Of a DNA stretch of 33,139 nucleotides, positions 10,380 to 32,903 are shown one piece after another (the stretch's first letter is position 1; each line of letters starts with the position of its first letter). The translations under genes and the position numbers were made by a program. The notes below the pieces were generated by a model. That model was not told the DNA's origin. It was given only the letters and a program-made list of their open reading frames with translations, and did not search any database. This DNA comes from a virus (taxonomy: Duplodnaviria; Heunggongvirae; Uroviricota; Caudoviricetes). Location: IMG/VR virus record IMGVR_UViG_2703719355_000019; one strand, written 5' to 3'.

Positions 10380-11801
10380 TTACAAAATCATGTCGATGCG
10401 ACCGGCAAACACATGCAGGCCGTTAACCACATCCGCCGGAACCACGCAGTCGAGACGGTTTGCATCTTTCCCGTTTCGTTGAACGCGCAGCTTTGCTTTG
10501 TTCGCTTCCACGTTCTCCAGAATTTCCGCTTCCTCCAGCTTGATCAGCACGTCATACAGTTCGCTTTCCACTTTTGCGATAGTGCGGGTGCTGAGTTTTT
10601 CGCGCGGGAAGCGAAGGCTGATGCGTTCGCGGCACGCCTTGCGGGTGTAGTCCAGCGTTCTGATGGACGTGATATCCAGTAACGAGACGTCAGTCACGCC
10701 CTGTGCGTTTACCGTGTACGTACTGACCGCACGCACAATCTGCACCGTGTTACCCGGGCCAACCTCAACCGGCGTCAGGCCGTTATGCAGGGCGTTTTCC
10801 TGCTCGTTACGGCTTTCACGCTGTGACATTGCGACCACATCCAGCCCGGACAGCGCCAGCGAGTTCAGCGGACGTGCCGGGTCTTCCTCGCCCGCCATCA
10901 CAGCGCCGTAGATGGCAGCCAGCACCGCCGGCAGCTTCACGGAGCCGCGATACCAGGGGACGGACACGCGCCCGCTGTTCACACCGGCTGCCAGGGTGAT
11001 CCCGTTTCCGAGACTCCCCGTCCAGCCCGCACAGCCAATCGCGCCACGCTGTTCCATCGCGTTCCCGGTTTTCTCCAGGTGCTGCTTCAGGGCGGCAAGG
11101 GCTGGCGCGGTACTGAACGGACAAATCAGAATGTTGTGACCGGCGGCAAAGACCGCATCCAGTGCGGGCTGAATATCCGGGTCCATTTCACCGTTCGCCA
11201 TCGGCGTGGCGCTCACGGTCAGACCACCTGCCGTGGTGGATGCTGACAGGGTGATGTCATTCCCCCAGGCACCTTTGGTCCGGGTGGTGACCGTCAGCTG
11301 AGAGGCTTCCGATTGGTATTCCCCCGTAACCAGAAGCGAAGGCGTCTGCGTCATTGCTTCCACCAGTGCCGGAATGATTTTCGACGGTCCATCACCGGTT
11401 TCCACATCCACCGAAACCTGCTCACCGGCAACCCATACCGACAGCGTGCCGCTGCTGATTGCCGTACCGTTGACGGTAACTGCGCCGGTTGCTGCCTTTC
11501 CTGCGCCACTGTCTGCAATACCAATAACATCCAGTTGCAGATAGCTGTTGGCATTAATGGCCGCGCGCGCCATTGCAGCGGCCAGCGAACCGGCCCCGAA
11601 ATACAAATCCGCTTCGTCTTCGGAATACACGGAAACGGCATTCAGGGGCGTGGCGGTGCCGCCTGACAGCATCGGGCCAATCACCAGAACACGCTGTTCG
11701 TTACCCGGCAGCGTGTTAACGGCCAGCCGGGTATTAAACTCAAAATGCACACCGGGCTTACGGATGCCGCCCGAAATGGTGTCAAACTGAATTTCACTCA
11801 T
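10380..11801 (-). CDS. tail sheath protein (Mu L-like)
   Basis: 473-aa ORF; size and position typical of contractile tail sheath. Confidence 0.9.
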   Translation of the reverse strand: MSEIQFDTISGGIRKPGVHFEFNTRLAVNTLPGNEQRVLVIGPMLSGGTATPLNAVSVYSEDEADLYFGAGSLAAAMARAAINANSYLQLDVIGIADSGAGKAATGAVTVNGTAISSGTLSVWVAGEQVSVDVETGDGPSKIIPALVEAMTQTPSLLVTGEYQSEASQLTVTTRTKGAWGNDITLSASTTAGGLTVSATPMANGEMDPDIQPALDAVFAAGHNILICPFSTAPALAALKQHLEKTGNAMEQRGAIGCAGWTGSLGNGITLAAGVNSGRVSVPWYRGSVKLPAVLAAIYGAVMAGEEDPARPLNSLALSGLDVVAMSQRESRNEQENALHNGLTPVEVGPGNTVQIVRAVSTYTVNAQGVTDVSLLDITSIRTLDYTRKACRERISLRFPREKLSTRTIAKVESELYDVLIKLEEAEILENVEANKAKLRVQRNGKDANRLDCVVPADVVNGLHVFAGRIDMIL

Positions 11802-14745: not shown

Positions 14746-15915
14746 TTACTTATCTCCTGCGTAACGGGCGACATCCTCTGGATCAACGCCCATCATTGAA
14801 CAAATGGCGATATCGACATCAACGTCATCGCCGGTTTTAATCTGCGCCGGAGCCGGTGACGGCGTTTTGGGTGGTTTGCCGCCGGTCTGGGTGCTGCTGA
14901 GTGCGGCAAGCGGGGTGGTTTTATCCAGCCAGGTTTTAAAACCGTTAATATCGCGACGAGCGTAATCTTTCGCCCAGTCTTCCAGCGTCGGAAGCAGTCG
15001 CCCGTCAGACAGCGCCGCCTGAATCAGTGCCCCGGCTTCGGCCTCACCGGACTGTTGCGCCAGTACGGCATAACGCCCCTGAAGTTCTTCATATGCCGTC
15101 AGAGGAATATGCTTCGTCGGGTCATAGGCATTTGCTGACAGGCTGGCGATTTGCTCGTCTTTCTGATTCAGCAGGGTCAGCAGGCTGACGGATGCCGCCG
15201 CCGTTCCCTGACCGTTCGAAATCATGTCAACGACCTTTTGCAGCTCGTTTTTGATATCTTCCGCCGTTGAGGTAACCGGGAGGTTAAGCATCCAGCGCAG
15301 ACTGGACAGCAAATCGTTTAACAGTTCTTCATCCACCGTTGTGGTCTCCGTTTCAGTTGACAGACTCGCCAGACGGCTGGCCGCAGCCAGCATGACTGCA
15401 TCCATACCGTCCAGCGCCGGGGTATTGGTCAGCGCAGCATGTAACAGCTCCAGCACTTCGCCGCGCTTGTTGTAGGCAAAAACAGGGGAAATAAATTTGT
15501 ACTCACCGGCGGCAATCATGGCCGCCGCGTTCTCCGTCCACTCCACACCAGTGGCATACAGGCCCGCACCTTCTCGCCATTCCACCTGGCTGAACCAGCC
15601 CGCCGCCGGGGCGGGCTTGCCGTTGTTTACGGCGCGCAGCGTCTGATGTTCGTAATCAATGACAAAAGGCGTGGTACGGGCGGCCACCTGTGCGACAATC
15701 TGCGCGGCCAGTTCAGTGGTCAGCACCCATTTACCGCTTTCGACTTCATCGGTATGTGGGCGACCATCCACCGCGCTGAACTCGCCCGCCGGAAACAGCT
15801 GGATTTCGCTGTGGGTTGCTTTGGTAATTTCGAGGCTTAACGCCGCAATGTTCATCTTCATACGCGGCATGATGACGGAAGGGGAACACGGGGTACTGTG
15901 GAGGGGGTTCAGCAC
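14746..15915 (-). CDS. head protease/scaffold protein (Mu I-like)
   Basis: 389-aa ORF; track start is GTG at 15915; internal ATGs at 15870, 15861 and 15855 are alternative starts. Confidence 0.8.
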   Translation of the reverse strand: MLNPLHSTPCSPSVIMPRMKMNIAALSLEITKATHSEIQLFPAGEFSAVDGRPHTDEVESGKWVLTTELAAQIVAQVAARTTPFVIDYEHQTLRAVNNGKPAPAAGWFSQVEWREGAGLYATGVEWTENAAAMIAAGEYKFISPVFAYNKRGEVLELLHAALTNTPALDGMDAVMLAAASRLASLSTETETTTVDEELLNDLLSSLRWMLNLPVTSTAEDIKNELQKVVDMISNGQGTAAASVSLLTLLNQKDEQIASLSANAYDPTKHIPLTAYEELQGRYAVLAQQSGEAEAGALIQAALSDGRLLPTLEDWAKDYARRDINGFKTWLDKTTPLAALSSTQTGGKPPKTPSPAPAQIKTGDDVDVDIAICSMMGVDPEDVARYAGDK

Positions 15916-23177: not shown

Positions 23178-23359
23178 GAGTTTCTCCTGTAAATCTGAGC
23201 CACTGACGGCCCGTAAATAACACCCTGTCAAAGGCACAAAAGCCTTTTGCAGGGCGCTATCCCTTAAGGTGCCTTGTGGTCTGAGTGGACAGGGTAAACG
23301 GTCTGGTGTGGTGGGTACTGCTGGGGGTGTTCAGCACCCCGCGGCAGCGGGGTGATAAA

Positions 23360-23638
23360 TCAGAAGCGGGAAAGGGAATCCGGCGTAATAAGAGGTTTAT
23401 TACAAAGCCGAGCAGAGGTGTTCGCCTTTTCCATCGCTGCGCGCATCTCGTTTTCGCTGGCGATGATGTCAGCAATGGCACACTGCAACGCTTCTTCCTG
23501 AACAACCATATCCGGTTGTTCGGCCATTCGGTTTAACTGACTGGCCAAATTTTTCATATAAGCAAAGCGACGTCCGGCAGCATCCCGGGCCTGCTCTGAG
23601 TAGGCCGTATACTCGCCAAGTGCCATATAGTTGGTCAT
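23360..23638 (-). CDS. hypothetical protein (92 aa)
   Basis: Start at ATG 23638, preceded by AGGAG with a 6-nt spacer; the longer track ORF would start within the upstream terminator. Confidence 0.55.
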   Translation of the reverse strand: MTNYMALGEYTAYSEQARDAAGRRFAYMKNLASQLNRMAEQPDMVVQEEALQCAIADIIASENEMRAAMEKANTSARLCNKPLITPDSLSRF

Positions 23639-23664
23639 AAGTGTCTCCTTTTTTCTGAGGCCCA

Positions 23665-24132
23665 TTAATCAAAAAGCCCCACCTGGGTGGGGCTTTTCAG
23701 CGAAGTCTGTTTTTGTCGTCGGTGTATCAGCTGCCATGCGTACCGGTCTGAAATGCCGTAACGGGGACAGAGCAGTGCCAGCGCCTGCCGGTGTGAGCAT
23801 CCGTCTTTTATATGCTGCTGTAAATCAGCCATAAAACGGGTGTTACGCAGGGCACGTAATGCATGATCGCAACGGGGAATGTAAAACGGAGCACCGCCAA
23901 GAAAGCGGATCAGTTTGTTGATTTCGTCTTCGGTCAGCACATCATGTAACAGGGCATGGACGCCGCCGGTGCGTTCAGCGTGTGCGCCGGTTTTACCGCT
24001 TAACGTCACGCCACCAAAAGAACGGATTAACCGGGTCAGGGCGGGGAAGCCAATCACGCTAATCAGTTGTTGCACGGAGTCGGGCAGCAGTGCCTGCGCA
24101 TCGCGAAGATCTGTTTCACTGAAGGTCTGCAT
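23665..24132 (-). CDS. Mor/C-family transcriptional activator
   Basis: 155-aa ORF with GGAPFYIP motif followed by a C-terminal helix-turn-helix-like segment; located after gemA as in Mu. Confidence 0.8.
   Translation of the reverse strand: MQTFSETDLRDAQALLPDSVQQLISVIGFPALTRLIRSFGGVTLSGKTGAHAERTGGVHALLHDVLTEDEINKLIRFLGGAPFYIPRCDHALRALRNTRFMADLQQHIKDGCSHRQALALLCPRYGISDRYAWQLIHRRQKQTSLKSPTQVGLFD
23671..23697. terminator. bidirectional intrinsic terminator at the 3' end of the Mor-family gene
   Basis: A5-GCCCCACC-TG-GGTGGGGC-T4; perfect GC-rich stem flanked by an A-run and a T-run. Confidence 0.6.
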
Positions 24133-24161
24133 GATGGCGTCTCCGGTAGTAACTTACTGTT

Positions 24162-24189
24162 ATTATAGCCATACATGATCGCCTGTACA
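24162..24189 (-). promoter_or_regulatory. sigma70-like promoter upstream of the Mor-family gene
   Basis: On minus strand: -35 TGTACA (24189-24184), 16-nt spacer, -10 TATAAT (24167-24162); GGAG 8 nt upstream of the ATG at 24132. Confidence 0.4.
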
Positions 24190-24194
24190 GACCA

Positions 24195-24220
24195 CAAAAA
24201 AGCCCCTGCAAGGCAGAGGC
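24195..24220 (-). terminator. intrinsic terminator downstream of gemA-like gene
   Basis: Minus-strand RNA GCCUCUGC-CUU-GCAGGGGC (8-bp stem with one G-U pair) followed by U6; begins 8 nt after the gemA-like stop. Confidence 0.6.
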
Positions 24221-24227
24221 TGATTCT

Positions 24228-24641
24228 TTATTGTTTACGTGCTGCTCTGGCTCGTTTTCTGGCGTCTTTTGTCAGCGCCACCATCACCCCGAACAGTTGA
24301 TCATCTGTCAGCCATTCGATCACATGTTGCTTATACATGTGAGATGCCAGTCCTTCCGCATATGCCCAGGAACGACCGGCATCAGCCAGCAACGCTTCAA
24401 TTTTGGATAATACCGATTTTCTGCTCATTGCCACACGTGGGCGGCGACCTTTACCGGCGGGGGCTTTACGCGGAAATCCCTGTTCGTGCATGTATTCCCG
24501 GATGATGCGCAGTTCATCGAGGTTGCAGCGTGTGGTGCTGGTTTTACCGGTCAGGCGGGCCAGCGTCTGGCGATAAAGGACATCATCCCACCCCAGATAC
24601 GCCTGACCGGCTTTAATGGCTCCGATCATCTTTTTCAGCAT
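24228..24641 (-). CDS. gemA: GemA-like protein (Mu gp16-like, DUF1018-like)
   Basis: Start at ATG 24641 (MLKKMIGAIKAGQ..), preceded by GAGGA with an 8-nt spacer; basic C-terminus; position before the Mor-family gene. Confidence 0.7.
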   Translation of the reverse strand: MLKKMIGAIKAGQAYLGWDDVLYRQTLARLTGKTSTTRCNLDELRIIREYMHEQGFPRKAPAGKGRRPRVAMSRKSVLSKIEALLADAGRSWAYAEGLASHMYKQHVIEWLTDDQLFGVMVALTKDARKRARAARKQ

Positions 24642-24891
24642 GTTTGTTATCCTCAAAACGCACGGTAAAACGTGAAACGCCAATCCCTGACAGGAACGCA
24701 GCGGCACGGTCAAGAGACAGCCACGTCTTGTAATCGCCACGGCGTTCCTGTAGAAAATAGGACACCCCGGCGCGACGATTCACAGCAAAGAGGTGATACA
24801 CACCACCGAACCGCTGCACGACGAACTCATCCACGCCACCGCTTTCAGCCTGTTGCCTGAAAGCTGCCATTCCGATTTGTTCAATCTTCAT
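24613..24891 (-). CDS. hypothetical protein
   Basis: Minus-strand ORF; start uncertain (ATG 24891, no clear SD; track start GTG 24927); overlaps gemA start by 29 nt. Confidence 0.4.
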   Translation of the reverse strand: MKIEQIGMAAFRQQAESGGVDEFVVQRFGGVYHLFAVNRRAGVSYFLQERRGDYKTWLSLDRAAAFLSGIGVSRFTVRFEDNKHAEKDDRSH

Positions 24892-24958
24892 AATGACCAA
24901 AACATCACTTTTGGCAGACCAAAACACATGTTTTGGTCTGCGTTTGATTACTGTTCAA

Positions 24959-27773: not shown

Positions 27774-28319
27774 TTAACTACGACGTTCAGCTTTCCGGTA
27801 ATGACGGTCAACAGACTTTACGAACGCCTTCACATCACGGGAAATCGAATCCAGCGGATAATATTCATCCAGCAGTTCCATTCCGCTGAATCGAATCTGA
27901 AAAAAATCAGGCTTATCTTTATATGACTCCATCAGGTCAATAAACCGCAGCTGACGCGGGAGGGATTCCTGCACACCTGAAATAGTGAGCAAATCATCTT
28001 CAAGGATGTATGCGAGGTCTTCCATATCCTTACAGTCAGACAGCATGGATATTCTTGTCAGTATGTTCCGTGTGGCGATATACAGCGCTGCTGTGTCATT
28101 CGCCATCATGGCGAACAAATCCCCCTGAATATACGCCCCGCTACTGGCCACAGCATTCCCGGCAATCTGGGCATCAAGCACTACATCCATAAAATTACCA
28201 GGTGCTCCCAGACAACCCAGCAAGGATGACGCCCATAACGCTACATTGGTTAATTTCTCAGATGAACGGGTAGCAAAACCTTCAGGAGTAACAATAAAAT
28301 CCCATACTTTATCTTTCAT
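27774..28319 (-). CDS. hypothetical cargo protein 1 (181 aa) behind duplicated leader
   Basis: ATG 28319 preceded by AAGGGGA; N-terminus MKDKVW. Confidence 0.65.
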   Translation of the reverse strand: MKDKVWDFIVTPEGFATRSSEKLTNVALWASSLLGCLGAPGNFMDVVLDAQIAGNAVASSGAYIQGDLFAMMANDTAALYIATRNILTRISMLSDCKDMEDLAYILEDDLLTISGVQESLPRQLRFIDLMESYKDKPDFFQIRFSGMELLDEYYPLDSISRDVKAFVKSVDRHYRKAERRS

Positions 28320-28369
28320 ATATAAATCCCCTTAATTCAGGCGTAAGCCAGCCCCGGCGGGTTTACGCC
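28306..28369 (-). repeat. duplicated 64-bp leader element, copy B
   Basis: See copy A; the two copies are 625 bp apart. Confidence 0.85.
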
Positions 28370-28400
28370 TGTTTTAAATAACAATTAAAAATGAATTAAA

Positions 28401-28592
28401 TTAATGTGCTGCTTTCAGTGTTTCGACCTTTACGAAATAAGGCTCGACATTAATTTCAACCACACAACCACATTTAAAATCTCTGGCCGGTGCAACAGTT
28501 TTTACCACCCGACCACCACGCACCGCCTGATGTGCAATGTGCATGAAACGAGTACCAGGCGGATATAACTGATTAAAGCGTTTCGCGTTCAT
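28401..28592 (-). CDS. hypothetical small protein (63 aa)
   Basis: ATG 28592 (MNAKRFNQLYPPG..); start chosen inside the longer track ORF 28718..28401; overlaps upstream gene by 20 nt. Confidence 0.35.
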   Translation of the reverse strand: MNAKRFNQLYPPGTRFMHIAHQAVRGGRVVKTVAPARDFKCGCVVEINVEPYFVKVETLKAAH

Positions 28593-28806
28593 GAATCGGC
28601 TTCCATCCTTTCTGGTGAGCATTGGCACAGAACTGTGCCCGGTGTTCTGCCCAGATGCGGCGCAGGGTGCTACACGGGCTTTGCGCTGCCTTACGCCACA
28701 GCTTTTCAGCCTCGGCATAATCGCCGCGTTGTTCTGCTCTGGACGCGCCCAGCGAATACGCCGCGCAACTATTTCTGGCTCTGTACTCTTTGATATCCTG
28801 ATGCAT
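28573..28806 (-). CDS. small protein (77 aa), possible ANR-like regulator
   Basis: ATG 28806 one nt after the upstream stop, preceded by AGGGG; RGDYAEAEKLWRKAA and IWAEHRAQFC motifs resemble small ANR-type phage regulators. Confidence 0.45.
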   Translation of the reverse strand: MHQDIKEYRARNSCAAYSLGASRAEQRGDYAEAEKLWRKAAQSPCSTLRRIWAEHRAQFCANAHQKGWKPIHERETL

Positions 28807-29709: not shown

Positions 29710-29949
29710 TCATTGCCATACGACGGTGCAGCCGTCGATACAGGACGTTTTAACCACGCGGCGCAGGCCGCTGAATGTCTGGATGATTTCCGTTACCGGC
29801 CATACAGGACCACCCACGGGCGGGCAGGCATAAACCACAGGTAAACGGTGATGTTGTCCCGTTACACGACCACCAGTGGTGTGGATGGCCACACGGGCAC
29901 GGGAACGGACGGCGTTAATGGTCTGCTTGTCCATCGTCTTGTTCTCCAT
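29710..29949 (-). CDS. hypothetical protein (79 aa), first gene after B
   Basis: ATG overlaps the B stop (TGATG); Cys-containing. Confidence 0.5.
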   Translation of the reverse strand: MENKTMDKQTINAVRSRARVAIHTTGGRVTGQHHRLPVVYACPPVGGPVWPVTEIIQTFSGLRRVVKTSCIDGCTVVWQ

Positions 29950-30842
29950 CAGTGAATTAACATTTCTGCGAATTTATCAATGGCCTGCACACTGACCGGC
30001 GCATCGCTGATATCACAAATCCGGTACACACCACGCGCCAGCTTGAACAGACGGCGGGCATTACCCAGCGAACGTGTATAAAGCGCCTCGCTGATTTCCG
30101 GCTCTGCTGCTTCCGGCATCAACCCGGTAGCTATCTGGTTAAAATCTTCCTGCGACAACGTATCGCCCAGGTTAAGCGCCAGCGCCACGCGGCTGTATAA
30201 CTGGGCGAACTCACCACGACGCCCCTTGAGGTTAATCAGAAGGCGAGGCATACCCGCCAGAACAACCCCGATACCCGCTTTGTCATGCAGACGGCGCAGA
30301 ACCTCCAGGGCGCGATAGGGGAGCAGTTCAGCCTCGTCCACCATCAGCAGACGACCGGAATCACGCAGTTCGCGCACACAGGCATCTATCAGTTCGTGAA
30401 TGTTGCCGCGAACCTTTACCCCCAGCTGGCGGCACAACTCCTCAAGCAGTGTTCTGGCTGTATAGCCCGGGTCAGCCTCAATCAGGACCGCATCCCGGTT
30501 TCTGGCGGCGTATTCACGCAGAATCATTGTTTTGCCAAGACCTGCTGCGCCATACAGCACACAGATTTCACATTCCAGGTGAGCGTAGGCCAGCACCTCC
30601 AGTCCTTTGGCAGTCATACTGGTGGTCACAAACTTTGCTTTAATACGGCGGCTGTTTTCCTTTTCCCGCTCACGGGTCACAAAGGCAGAAATGCGTTCTT
30701 CAATATCAGCCATATCGCCCTGATATTTACCCTGTAAATACTGGCTGATAACGGCGCTGCTACGCCCAATGGCACGGGCGACGTGGGTCTGCGTATAGCC
30801 GCGACGGGCCATTACGTCATTTAATTGCGTAATTAAACTCAT
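29949..30842 (-). CDS. B: DNA transposition ATPase (MuB-like, AAA+)
   Basis: 297-aa ORF with Walker A GAAGLGKT; directly downstream of the transposase. Confidence 0.9.
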   Translation of the reverse strand: MSLITQLNDVMARRGYTQTHVARAIGRSSAVISQYLQGKYQGDMADIEERISAFVTREREKENSRRIKAKFVTTSMTAKGLEVLAYAHLECEICVLYGAAGLGKTMILREYAARNRDAVLIEADPGYTARTLLEELCRQLGVKVRGNIHELIDACVRELRDSGRLLMVDEAELLPYRALEVLRRLHDKAGIGVVLAGMPRLLINLKGRRGEFAQLYSRVALALNLGDTLSQEDFNQIATGLMPEAAEPEISEALYTRSLGNARRLFKLARGVYRICDISDAPVSVQAIDKFAEMLIH

Positions 30843-30860: not shown

Positions 30861-32903
30861 TTAACGGTTGTTTGTGCCGTTTTTCTTTAAATTGCGCTCG
30901 CGTTCAGATGCGAATAAATAAAGTTCTTCTTTTTCCTTTTTCTCCGGGCGCTCCAGTCCATATCCCAGATTAAAGTCAGGCTTCTGCGTAATAGCCGGAG
31001 TAAGCTCGCGTTTAGCCTCTTCGATTTTCTGCGTGGCCCGTGCAATGCGGCCCCTGACGCGTTTCTCCAGTTTTTGTTCGATAACTGGTTTAGCGAAGGC
31101 ATCAACCTTGTTACCGTTCCAGATGGCATCGCAGATATAAGAGCCATCAGCCCGCCGGACAATGACGCTGTTTGCATCATGAATATCGTAACTGACCCTG
31201 ACTTCATTCCCGTGCTCTGCGGCCAGCTCATACGAGTAATAAATATTGTTGAATAACTGAATTTCCCCGCGAAATGTTTTGCGCGTCACTTCCGGCCTGA
31301 ACATTTCATGCAGTTCTTCCGGCGACAGGAAATCAATTTCAACATTCTGCTCTTTTATCAGTTTCCGGCGATACGCTGCCGGGCTGTAATGCTCGCCATC
31401 CTCTTTGCGAGGAAGGCTGCTGTGTGGCCGGTTGTTATAGCGTCTGACCTCCAGCTCTATGGCTGCCATCAGTTGCTCAAAGGTAGGGATTTCATCCCTC
31501 GCCTTAACCTGCCGTTTTGTCAGCTCTTTCCCTTTGTGGGTGGCCTTAATGGCTGACTGCATAATCCGTTGCTGCATCATTACGGTTTCCTTGTCTGCAT
31601 CCCTTGCGCAGTACGTCTGGAAACTCAGGGCCACGTCTTTGGGTATTTCCTTGTTAACCCTTTCAATCACCCCGCGCCCCTGCGGGTTACCTGGTATCCC
31701 CGTGTGATGTTCCACACCCAGACGGGGCAGAATCCCGGTAATATCGGCATCAAGCACCCGGTTTTTTTCGCCGCCCCCGTTATCGGAGTAATAAATCAGC
31801 GGTATCCCGTGCTGTGCCATGCCGTAACGTAACGCATCAGCAACGGCTATCACGTTCTCCGACAGGGACAGTGACCAGCCCACAATAAAGCGTTGTCCTG
31901 CATCCATAACCAGCGTCACTTCTGGCCGGAAAATATTGCCGGTCAGTGGGTTAAACGCGGTCATTTTCATACAGTGACCATCCCCGACCCATACCGCATT
32001 AACCGGTAATGTGCTCCAGTCGCGCCGCACAAAAGGATTGAGCGAACGCCAGGCTGAACCGGTGGAGCGGAAACGTTCTTTAACAATCACCGGAACGCTG
32101 CTTAACACCCGTCTGACTGCGTGAACTGAAGGCAGTGCTGCCAGCATTCCCGTATCATTCGCGTGTTTTTCATGCCACCAGGCTGAAAACTCGCGATACG
32201 CATATTCAACGGTCGGTCGCTTCCATGAACGATAGAACATAAAGAAATCGCTCAACCACCAGACCTGCTCCCACGGTGTTCCCTTATGATGACCGGGAGC
32301 CAGTAACGCCAGTAACTGATTGGCATCACCGCGCGCCATCACCCAGCTGGAGTACCAGCTATCCAGGCTGCCGGTGCTGACACCGGTTCGCTTTCCCTGA
32401 CGTGCATTTGCAGTATTAGCTGCTTCGATAATGCGGTCAGGTAACGCCCCCATGCGCACACCATCAACGATGTGCTTTAAAGCGGCCTTCCTGGTCATTC
32501 CGGCATACTCGCGCAGCTTATGCACTTCAGTAGCCAGCAATATCCGCGCATCAGCGATGGCCTTTTGCTTGTCAGTCAGTGCCTGAACTTCACGTAATGC
32601 CAGTTCCGGGCATTTGACCATCACCTCCAGTTCATCGCGAACGGCGACGTTTTTAACTGCCTTCTGCTCAACCACGGCGGGCAGTTGCGTATCTTCCAGA
32701 ACCTGATGGGTCAGGCGCTTACGTAAAACTTTCTGCGCTTCAGCGGGCAGGCAGTCGATGTGATACTCGAATGCTTTGGTGCCTTCGCGCTTGCGCTTCC
32801 ATTCCGGGTGCGTCTCTGTGATCCGATTGAGCGTCCAGCGCACCCCCTGAACTGTACCGGGCAAACCAGGAAGACCGGCCAGCTCATTGGCTGAATAAAA
32901 CAT
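30861..32903 (-). CDS. A: DDE transposase (MuA-like)
   Basis: 680-aa ORF between the ner-like and B-like genes; size and position match MuA. Confidence 0.9.
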   Translation of the reverse strand: MFYSANELAGLPGLPGTVQGVRWTLNRITETHPEWKRKREGTKAFEYHIDCLPAEAQKVLRKRLTHQVLEDTQLPAVVEQKAVKNVAVRDELEVMVKCPELALREVQALTDKQKAIADARILLATEVHKLREYAGMTRKAALKHIVDGVRMGALPDRIIEAANTANARQGKRTGVSTGSLDSWYSSWVMARGDANQLLALLAPGHHKGTPWEQVWWLSDFFMFYRSWKRPTVEYAYREFSAWWHEKHANDTGMLAALPSVHAVRRVLSSVPVIVKERFRSTGSAWRSLNPFVRRDWSTLPVNAVWVGDGHCMKMTAFNPLTGNIFRPEVTLVMDAGQRFIVGWSLSLSENVIAVADALRYGMAQHGIPLIYYSDNGGGEKNRVLDADITGILPRLGVEHHTGIPGNPQGRGVIERVNKEIPKDVALSFQTYCARDADKETVMMQQRIMQSAIKATHKGKELTKRQVKARDEIPTFEQLMAAIELEVRRYNNRPHSSLPRKEDGEHYSPAAYRRKLIKEQNVEIDFLSPEELHEMFRPEVTRKTFRGEIQLFNNIYYSYELAAEHGNEVRVSYDIHDANSVIVRRADGSYICDAIWNGNKVDAFAKPVIEQKLEKRVRGRIARATQKIEEAKRELTPAITQKPDFNLGYGLERPEKKEKEELYLFASERERNLKKNGTNNR

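Follow-up and report, generated by a model that had tools for sequence, protein, structure and literature searches.

The stretch of DNA analysed here, called the window in the following, is the IMG/VR virus record IMGVR_UViG_2703719355_000019 with a full length of 33,139 nucleotides (nt). It is a Mu-like prophage of the SuMu/FluMu type from Escherichia coli, in which all genes are encoded on the minus strand. The gene order starts with a Ner-like gene, which is cut by the window end, followed by A, B, small early genes, gemA and a gene of the Mor/C family, designated mor in this work. On the 3' side of mor, orf92, two holin genes, an endolysin gene, DUF1804, TerL, portal, head, tail and tail-fibre genes are found. 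The subject of this work is the region from the end of gemA to orf92, in which mor is accompanied by a promoter and two intrinsic terminators (T1 and T2). The following features were recognised:

24228-24641, minus strand: gemA, the final gene of the early operon (Pfam GemA, 67 bits; stop codon at 24230-24228).
24195-24221, minus strand: intrinsic terminator T1 (9-bp stem, 3-nt loop, T6).
24155-24190, minus strand: P_mor, a predicted promoter of the σ70 type (-35 TGTACA at 24189-24184, 16-nt spacer, -10 TATAAT at 24167-24162).
23665-24132, minus strand: mor, Mor/C-family gene of 155 amino acids (aa) (Pfam Mor, PHROG 836; Shine-Dalgarno sequence GGAG at 24144-24141).
23671-23697, minus strand: intrinsic terminator T2 (stem end at 23676, U-run at 23675-23671).
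23671-23685, minus strand: codons for QVGLF, a predicted C-terminal motif for binding of the β sliding clamp, overlapping the 3' arm and the T-run of T2.
23360-23638, minus strand: orf92, 92 aa (PHROG 7152, function unknown; Shine-Dalgarno sequence AAGGAG at 23650-23645).

Relatives of the region were gathered from genomes, assemblies and IMG/VR, and 51 IMG/VR loci were classified. Relatives of the prophage with 95-99% identity are present in at least 58 complete E. coli genomes. Among these, enteropathogenic E. coli (EPEC) E2348/69 carries a complete, 97%-identical prophage, which is inserted in eutC. The GemA protein of the window shares 58-66% identity with its counterparts in relatives. 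For the analysis of conservation, relatives from Salmonella (66% protein identity) and Edwardsiella (54%) were compared to the window. The DNA identity of the mor coding sequence (CDS) to the window is 68% for Salmonella and 60% for Edwardsiella. Third positions of conserved codons, which are of the synonymous type and served as neutral yardstick, are identical in 57% and 52% of the cases, respectively.

T1 begins 6 nt beyond the gemA stop codon. Its stem, AGCCTCTGC-CTT-GCAGGGGCT, is located at 24221-24201 and the T-run starts at 24200; the folding energy is -17.7 kcal/mol with a z-score of -3.2. In a scan of the window, no compact canonical intrinsic terminator other than T1 and T2 was seen on the coding strand. 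In both, a GC-rich stem-loop is followed directly by a U-run (9 bp and U6 for T1, 7 bp of GC type and U5 for T2), and in both the structure is retained in relatives despite sequence change. For T1, at least six unrelated stem sequences were found in relatives (GCCTCTGC, GCCCCTGC, ACCTTCGC, ACCTCCGC, GCCCCGCC and CCCTCGCA). Four variants were folded one by one, since the MAFFT alignment misplaced the stems for the counting of pairs, and gave energies of -17.6 to -20.4 kcal/mol. Each stem is tied to a different upstream neighbour, which is either gemA itself or one of several unrelated morons encoding signal-peptide proteins, and all variants adjoin the same promoter at about -38. The distances between gemA and mor in relatives are 95, 120, 434, 454, ~572 and 599 nt, and the conserved block always starts ~3 nt 5' of the -35 hexamer; therefore, a terminator in front of the promoter is retained whatever was inserted upstream.

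The junction between gemA and mor is a hot spot for the insertion of morons, with at least three unrelated signal-peptide proteins of 158-176 aa being encoded there in different relatives (L001, 12934-13410; L019, 2359-2886; L023, 2350-2874; upstream open reading frames (ORFs) of L005, L006, L010 and L011). Several of these morons carry a terminator of their own. The T1 hairpin was also considered as a binding site of the Mor type, as it exists in the promoter Pm of Mu. This was rejected because the centre of the hairpin lies near -56 and relatives have freely replaced its sequence.

The start of transcription at P_mor is predicted near 24155, 23 nt ahead of the mor ATG, and the promoter lies ~12 nt beyond the T-run of T1. 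P_mor matches the consensus in 10 of 12 positions, with a perfect -10 and four of six positions in TGTACA, and its two hexamers have a distance within the 16-18 nt of σ70 promoters. In the Salmonella and Edwardsiella relatives, all 12 hexamer positions are identical and the hexamers are always the same distance apart. Identity of the 29-nt core amounts to 79% in these relatives, and the leader 3' of the -10 is unalignable. Seven versions of the spacer exist among the variants of the clade that shares this arrangement (class A, see below); CTGTACA, GATCA, TG and TATAAT are unchanged in all of them. The invariant TG is located at -16/-15 (relatives from E. coli, Salmonella and Edwardsiella). The invariant GATCA includes a Dam site, GATC at 24180-24177, within the spacer (24168-24183), which we take as a lead, not as evidence. 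Three further candidates around P_mor were rejected: an operator common to P_mor and the c-ner control region of the E2348/69 prophage, where merely 7-mers are shared; the palindrome CTGTACAG as a shared operator, for which no meaningful enrichment was found; and a leader hairpin masking the mor start codon in read-through RNA, which has a z-score of only -1.5 and is not kept in Salmonella and Edwardsiella.

T2 has the sequence AAAA-GCCCCAC-CCAG-GTGGGGC-TTTTT (23697-23671) with a folding energy of -20.6 kcal/mol and a z-score of -2.8. It was skipped by the pattern scanner only since the scanner extends the stem into A/T pairs. The terminator is located within the last nine codons of mor, which encode K-S-P-T-Q-V-G-L-F, and the mor stop codon follows at 23667-23665. 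Over its last 33 nt, the CDS shows 97% identity in Salmonella and 85% in Edwardsiella, and T2 is near-invariant in class A. Edwardsiella has CCCCGC/GCGGGG for CCCCAC/GTGGGG, i.e., a compensatory exchange of an A:T for a G:C pair, achieved by two nonsynonymous changes (T to A and V to A). Class A shows no variation in the codons for Gly-Leu-Phe-Asp and in the stop codon; homologues that lack the hairpin also encode G-L-F, with TTA, CTG or TTG as the codon for Leu. Where mor overlaps gemA, T2 is absent. Because the promoter and both terminators are conserved in relatives, we conclude from the comparison of sequences that P_mor, T1 and T2 are real rather than chance matches. The T2 dyad was also considered as an activator site for a promoter of orf92 and discarded, as a -10 at the right distance is missing and the dyad is unlike GCTGA-N6-TCAGC, the late-promoter dyad described below.

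The mor stop codon is located at +9 to +11 past the end of the T2 stem (23676). We infer that RNAs released at T2 at the usual +7 to +9 would be non-stop, i.e., would lack a complete stop codon. The start of orf92 is only ~30 nt past T2 and there is no space for a promoter of its own; therefore, orf92 of the window should be reached by read-through of T2 only. Homologues of orf92 were found in Escherichia albertii, Citrobacter, Enterobacter, Aeromonas, Salmonella and Edwardsiella, and they are located 3' of mor in relatives both with and without T2. In the Aeromonas and Enterobacter relatives in which mor overlaps gemA, an orf92 homologue follows mor without T2, and a hairpin and the first late promoter come next. 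The assumption that orf92 occurs only alongside T2 was wrong according to these two relatives. The position of orf92 is always between the activator gene and the first late promoter; one metagenomic homologue is located among head genes instead.

The protein encoded by mor matches Pfam Mor with 29.1 bits (gathering cut-off 24.9) and PHROG 836, annotated as 'late transcriptional activator', at 1.2e-42. Proteins of this family have a β-strand linker with invariant glycines (LGGxxxYIP) between the dimerisation and the helix-turn-helix domains, the role of which has been described (PMC2582627). In the window protein, FLGGAPFYIPR aligns with FLGGRQFYIP of Mu C and HLGGGQVYIPR of Mor, and the motif LGGxxFYIP is invariant in the alignment of homologues. 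When the family profile was compared to PDB, the structure of Mu C (9l0x) was hit at 9e-4, Mor (1rr7) only at 0.79. The alignment to Mu C extends through the C-terminal Q-x-x-L-F, with QVGLF opposite QPDLF. Most homologues have a C-terminus of the QxxLF type and in a few it is missing or degenerate (QMGLL). Mu C binds the β sliding clamp via such motifs, which is needed for late transcription (Ho and Harshey, 2026, PMC12867686), and Mor has a clamp motif at its N-terminus only (PMC12867686). The two forms looked for were an N-terminal Qx[DE][LM]F and a C-terminal QPDLF-like motif. The N-terminal motif is absent from the window protein and the C-terminal QVGLF is a putative motif of the second form. 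Because the profile favours Mu C and the clamp motif of the C type aligns, the window protein is classified, as far as its sequence tells, as a C-like late activator, closer to Mu C than to Mor.

A second Mor/C gene was not found in any of the six frames of the window using a profile of the homologues, either on its own or extended by the Mor and C sequences of Mu. When these two proteins served individually as phmmer queries, this ORF was again the only match; the next best hit of these searches had an E-value >0.4. A Pfam search of every ORF of the early region gave no further Mor match. The annotation of the complete E2348/69 prophage by the Prokaryotic Genome Annotation Pipeline (PGAP) also lists a single Mor-family CDS. 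Two paralogous activators, Mor plus C, as in the Mu cascade, are thus lacking in the window and in the complete E2348/69 prophage.

The original prediction for this region, derived from the sequence of the window, had described an activator gene insulated by two terminators. The terminator after gemA was found where it had been placed and on the minus strand, and the σ70-like promoter with a perfect TATAAT before the gene was confirmed, its hexamers being conserved 12/12 in relatives. That there is only one Mor/C gene is agreed upon by the six-frame profile, phmmer, Pfam and the PGAP annotation of E2348/69; a second gene, which would have spoken against the prediction, did not turn up. The terminator in the last codons had been called bidirectional. 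Its hairpin, A-run and T-run are present in the window, but the upstream A-run, which causes this look, is lost in the Edwardsiella relative (CCAAGCCCC...) and no plus-strand gene converges on T2. The insulation is borne out in so far as T1, P_mor and T2 co-occur in one clade and are conserved above neutral, but with orf92 lying beyond T2 the insulation is probably leaky on the downstream side.

Intergenic regions of the window were read and the motif GTGCTGAAC was found at three operon starts. These sites and a hairpin adjoining the first of them are:

23335-23354, minus strand: hairpin CACCCCGC-TGCC-GCGGGGTG after orf92 (-17.6 kcal/mol; no T-run).
23291-23337, minus strand: candidate late promoter A, Plys-like (dyad GCTGA-N6-CCAGC at -43.5; -10 TACCCT at 23296-23291; 22.1 bits).
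15869-15915, minus strand: candidate late promoter B, PI-like, 5' of the protease gene (-10 CATCAT at 15874-15869; 24.8 bits).
3972-4018, minus strand: candidate late promoter C, PP-like, 5' of the baseplate genes (-10 CAGACT at 3977-3972; 24.3 bits).

The motif recurs 3' of mor in other genera, and a -10-like hexamer always starts 41 nt after the start of the motif. The full element is an imperfect 16-bp dyad, GCTGA-N6-TCAGC, which is perfect in Buttiauxella, Intestinirhabdus and Aeromonas. Its centre is at -43.5 relative to the -10, and there is no -35. The dyads bound by Mor and C of Mu are at the same position of -43.5 (PMC2582627, PMC4287176). A position weight matrix (PWM) was built from sites of other genera only. 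With this matrix, exactly three sites were detected in the window (15915, 4018 and 23337) with 22-25 bits; the next best site scored 7.7 and the maximum in shuffled sequences was 17.4. For the motif combined with the -10 pattern, three matches were observed and 0.03 were expected. All three sites are on the coding strand and open the blocks for holin/endolysin/terminase/portal, protease/head and baseplate/tail-fibre, respectively; they are the counterparts of Plys, PI and PP of Mu. The geometry without -35 and with the 16-bp dyad at -43.5 is found at the three sites of the window and in most relatives, and the dyad would be the binding site of the activator. The P_mor region scored -19 bits with the PWM and no activator dyad was found there; therefore, the activator's own promoter is not of the late type.

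The late-promoter consensus is also present in the relative loci L002, L005-L011, L019, L023, L046-L077, L078 and L079. The 3' arm of the hairpin after orf92 overlaps the dyad of late promoter A, and this hairpin is kept in relatives with changes in the loop. An interpretation of GTGCTGAAC as σ32 or σE promoter or as RNA element was dropped on the fixed 41-nt offset of the -10 and the dyad at -43.5. At late promoters B and C, the annotated ATG (15861 and 3965) is located 7 and 6 nt past the -10 and a Shine-Dalgarno sequence is missing; hence, the mRNAs for the protease and the gp46-like protein may be leaderless.

Three arrangements of the activator gene were distinguished among the 51 IMG/VR loci, with one locus falling outside of them. 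In class A (21 loci; E. coli, Salmonella and Edwardsiella), T1, the σ70-type promoter and T2 are present. The three elements occur only together, and the cassette of T1, CTGTACA-N16-TATAAT and T2 within codons was detected solely in the E. coli/Salmonella/Edwardsiella clade. Class B (13 loci; Xenorhabdus, Photorhabdus and Morganella) has a predicted activator-type promoter before mor, consisting of CCACTGAACCCCTTCAAC and AATACT with the standard offset, which implies that mor would be autoregulated. A strong terminator hairpin ~100 nt 5' of mor straddles the predicted start in this class, its 5' arm overlapping the start (L005, L006, L010, L011, L049-L065), and should stop transcripts from upstream but not those initiated at the promoter. 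In class C (16 loci), mor overlaps gemA by 4-89 nt, and terminator and promoter are missing. Five genome loci and Klebsiella phage ST405-OXA48phi1.1 also have mor in this Mu-like position, and to judge from the hit table, some D3112-like Pseudomonas phages may share it. The sister clades of the window group (Xenorhabdus/Photorhabdus/Morganella and Trabulsiella/Buttiauxella/Serratia/Aeromonas) have the activator family, the C-terminal clamp motif and the spacing of late dyad and -10 in common with the window. They differ in the control of the gene: in one, mor is preceded by the activator-type promoter, and in the other, it overlaps gemA.

In the annotated Mu genome, a predicted terminator at 9179-9200 lies inside Pm, just after mor, and a second one at 10383-10406 lies on the C stop codon and adjoins Plys; both were also recognised in the Mu sequence itself. 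The middle operon of Mu (t9.2/Pm, gp18-20, C, terminator, Plys) therefore has the same order of terminator, promoter, activator, terminator and late promoter as the window, where T1 corresponds to t9.2, P_mor to Pm, the mor gene to C and T2 to the terminator of C. Terminators bracket the late-activator unit in both. The original prediction had called the unit unlike Mu; as a statement on the layout this does not hold, as the Mu C unit likewise extends from a terminator/promoter to a terminator/late promoter and the window gene corresponds to C. What remains of the contrast is the absence of Mor and of a Mor-type dyad promoter. In Mu, Mor is present and Pm depends on it via a dyad at -43.5 without a -35; in the window, Mor is absent and P_mor has a -35-like TGTACA, a perfect -10 and no dyad. 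The terminator hairpin of Mu is itself the Mor site at about -43.5, whereas T1 is centred near -56 and has a variable sequence. The second terminator of Mu is located at or after the C stop codon, T2 before the stop codon. In the window, orf92 intervenes between T2 and the first late promoter, whereas the C terminator of Mu adjoins Plys. Finally, the C site of Mu is TTAT-N5-6-ATAA and the dyad of the window is GCTGA-N6-TCAGC. The window unit is a clade-specific variant of the Mu C layout and no new kind of switch.

Mu-like phages with a single activator and without C have been described, namely SuMu, 3927AP2 and phiMhaMu2 (PMC4553209). One Mor/C gene between gemA and the lysis genes is found in SuMu, the Mannheimia phages 3927AP2/phiMhaMu2, the D3112/MP22 group and ST405-OXA48phi1.1, and their activators are 31-41% identical to the window protein. 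In Haemophilus phage SuMu, a hairpin with T-run is located both before and after the single activator (L026, 1340-1500 and 1920-2000); therefore, a terminator-bracketed activator is not limited to the enterobacterial clade. Another known system with a late activator gene that stands alone is P2 ogr, a small gene with its own promoter outside of the early operon, and late transcription of P2 depends on replication. The product of ogr is unlike the window protein in being a zinc-finger protein of the Ogr/Delta family, and its promoter elements and genome context are different.

Probably, the region is a middle transcription unit in which the Mor-then-C cascade of Mu has been merged into one activator. 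Early transcription from the left end would pass gemA and be stopped at T1. At P_mor, a new transcript would start near 24155, encoding the sole Mor/C-family protein, which appears C-like and carries the putative β-clamp-binding motif at its C-terminus. T2, located inside the codons of this motif, would end or attenuate the transcript, with read-through also allowing expression of orf92. The activator would then turn on the three late promoters for lysis/head, protease/head and baseplate/tail by binding to their dyads, and may use the clamp for this purpose. The unit would work like the Mu C operon, except for having a promoter with a -35-like element and without activator dyad. Demonstrated on the level of sequence and comparison are the presence and conservation of the elements, the restriction to one family member and the motif of the late promoters.

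Several points weigh against this reading. Sites with a 10/12 match to the promoter consensus were observed five times in 8 kb with 6.3 expected, i.e., the P_mor match alone is not above chance. The conservation stems from few independent lineages (the E. coli group, Salmonella and Edwardsiella), and part of it is protein coding in the case of T2, the 3' arm and T-run of which are also under the constraint of the clamp codons. A conserved orf92 beyond T2 means that T2 is no tight insulator. Due to the coupling of ribosome and polymerase, translation of the last mor codons is expected to mask the T2 hairpin as well, and the terms attenuator or 3'-end former suit T2 better than wall does. A near-consensus promoter of a lethal late activator should not run freely in a stable lysogen, an operator was not found at P_mor, and the step of regulation is thus missing from the model. 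Published data on transcription start sites were sought for the prophage of E2348/69, and no coordinates of transcript starts or ends were found.

In an alternative reading, P_mor would not be the operative promoter; T1 would be leaky and the early transcript would end with mor, which is the case in Mu and most relatives, the hairpins only tuning the level. This is unlikely. The P_mor match being no better than chance speaks for it. The overlap of mor with gemA without terminator and promoter in 16 of the 51 IMG/VR loci and five genome loci, as well as in ST405-OXA48phi1.1 and, according to the hit table, in some D3112-like phages, makes expression from the early operon a common or ancestral solution. 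In the clade of the window, however, both hexamers are perfectly conserved at a neutral identity of ~55%, a strong terminator is always positioned directly 5' of the promoter whatever the upstream gene, and T1 itself is canonical with its 9-bp GC-rich stem and T6.

There is another account, of similarly low probability, in which P_mor would be constitutive or weak even in the lysogen and the late genes would await clamps on replicating or nicked phage DNA, with T2 limiting the output. A promoter with -35 and -10 and no recognisable operator or activator site is what would be expected in this case. The C-terminal clamp-binding motif also fits, and so does the need of Mu C for the clamp in late transcription (PMC12867686). 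Mu C expressed from a plasmid, however, switched on a late-promoter reporter without Mu replication and was toxic (PMC12867686), and because of this, a free-running P_mor seems unlikely in a stable lysogen. A constitutive activator would be expected to fire the holin/endolysin operon. Relatives of the region with 95-99% identity reside in at least 58 E. coli genomes. An activator gene running on its own in this way would resemble P2 ogr.

A more elaborate scheme is rather doubtful. The switch would bypass the early transcript, and the Dam site in the free-standing P_mor could tie its activity to replication via hemimethylation. The non-stop mRNAs ended at T2 would lead to a product that is tagged by transfer-messenger RNA (tmRNA) and degraded; only RNAs reading through T2, which also include orf92, would yield stable activator, and clamp binding by the C-terminal motif, the codons of which lie inside T2, would be a second link to replication.

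We regard it as very unlikely that no insulation was selected for at all and that T1 is simply the terminator of the early operon or of a moron and T2 arises from the motif codons. At least three unrelated signal-peptide morons, several with their own terminator, do lie just upstream of mor in relatives, and GGG-CTT-TTT codes for the conserved G-L-F. T1, however, is also present in lineages without a moron (window and Edwardsiella), the 5' arm of T2 codes for non-conserved residues, yet co-varies with the 3' arm, homologues without T2 specify this motif using different Leu codons and form no hairpin, and T1, P_mor and T2 are only found together. That the gene is a middle regulator of the Mor type and the true late activator an unrecognised, unrelated protein can hardly be correct. 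In favour of this are the annotation as 'Mor' and the position behind gemA, which mor also occupies in Mu. Against it stand the greater similarity of the protein to Mu C and its C-terminal clamp motif of the C type. One dyad in Mor/C geometry is common to the three late operons, another class of candidate promoters being absent, and a second family member was not found.

Further features of the window concern the early region:

30861-32903, minus strand: transposase A (window annotation).
29949-30842, minus strand: B (window annotation).

A strong hairpin (-22 kcal/mol) at 28338-28371 lies between the early ORFs 27774-28319 and 28401-28718; it has a T-run only on the plus strand, which is antisense to the early operon. 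Positions 24894-24941 contain a perfect palindrome of 28 bp, GCAGACCAAAACA|TGTTTTGGTCTGC, and, 9 nt further on, TGTTTTGGTC for the third time. The palindrome is located just 5' of the ORF 24613-24891, which precedes and overlaps gemA, and may serve the early operon as operator or internal control site. A search of the whole window against Rfam gave no family at the gathering score. Sub-threshold matches at 23640-23770 were rejected, as only the terminator part of unrelated models was matched.

The cascade of Mor and C in Mu is the textbook model for timing in transposable phages; most relatives have only one activator. The arrangement in the window is not a new principle; Mu-like phages with one activator have already been described (PMC4553209). 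The group of prophages offers three natural versions of the circuit, in which the activator gene closes the early operon, follows an autoregulated activator-type promoter, or is insulated with a σ70-type promoter. Together with the late-promoter consensus and the clamp motif, these versions form a compact system for the effects of wiring on the timing of lysis. Experiments are easy to set up because the prophage resides in EPEC E2348/69 and in no fewer than 57 further complete E. coli genomes, and the group could show whether the dependence on the clamp, as reported for Mu C, replaces the missing Mor step.

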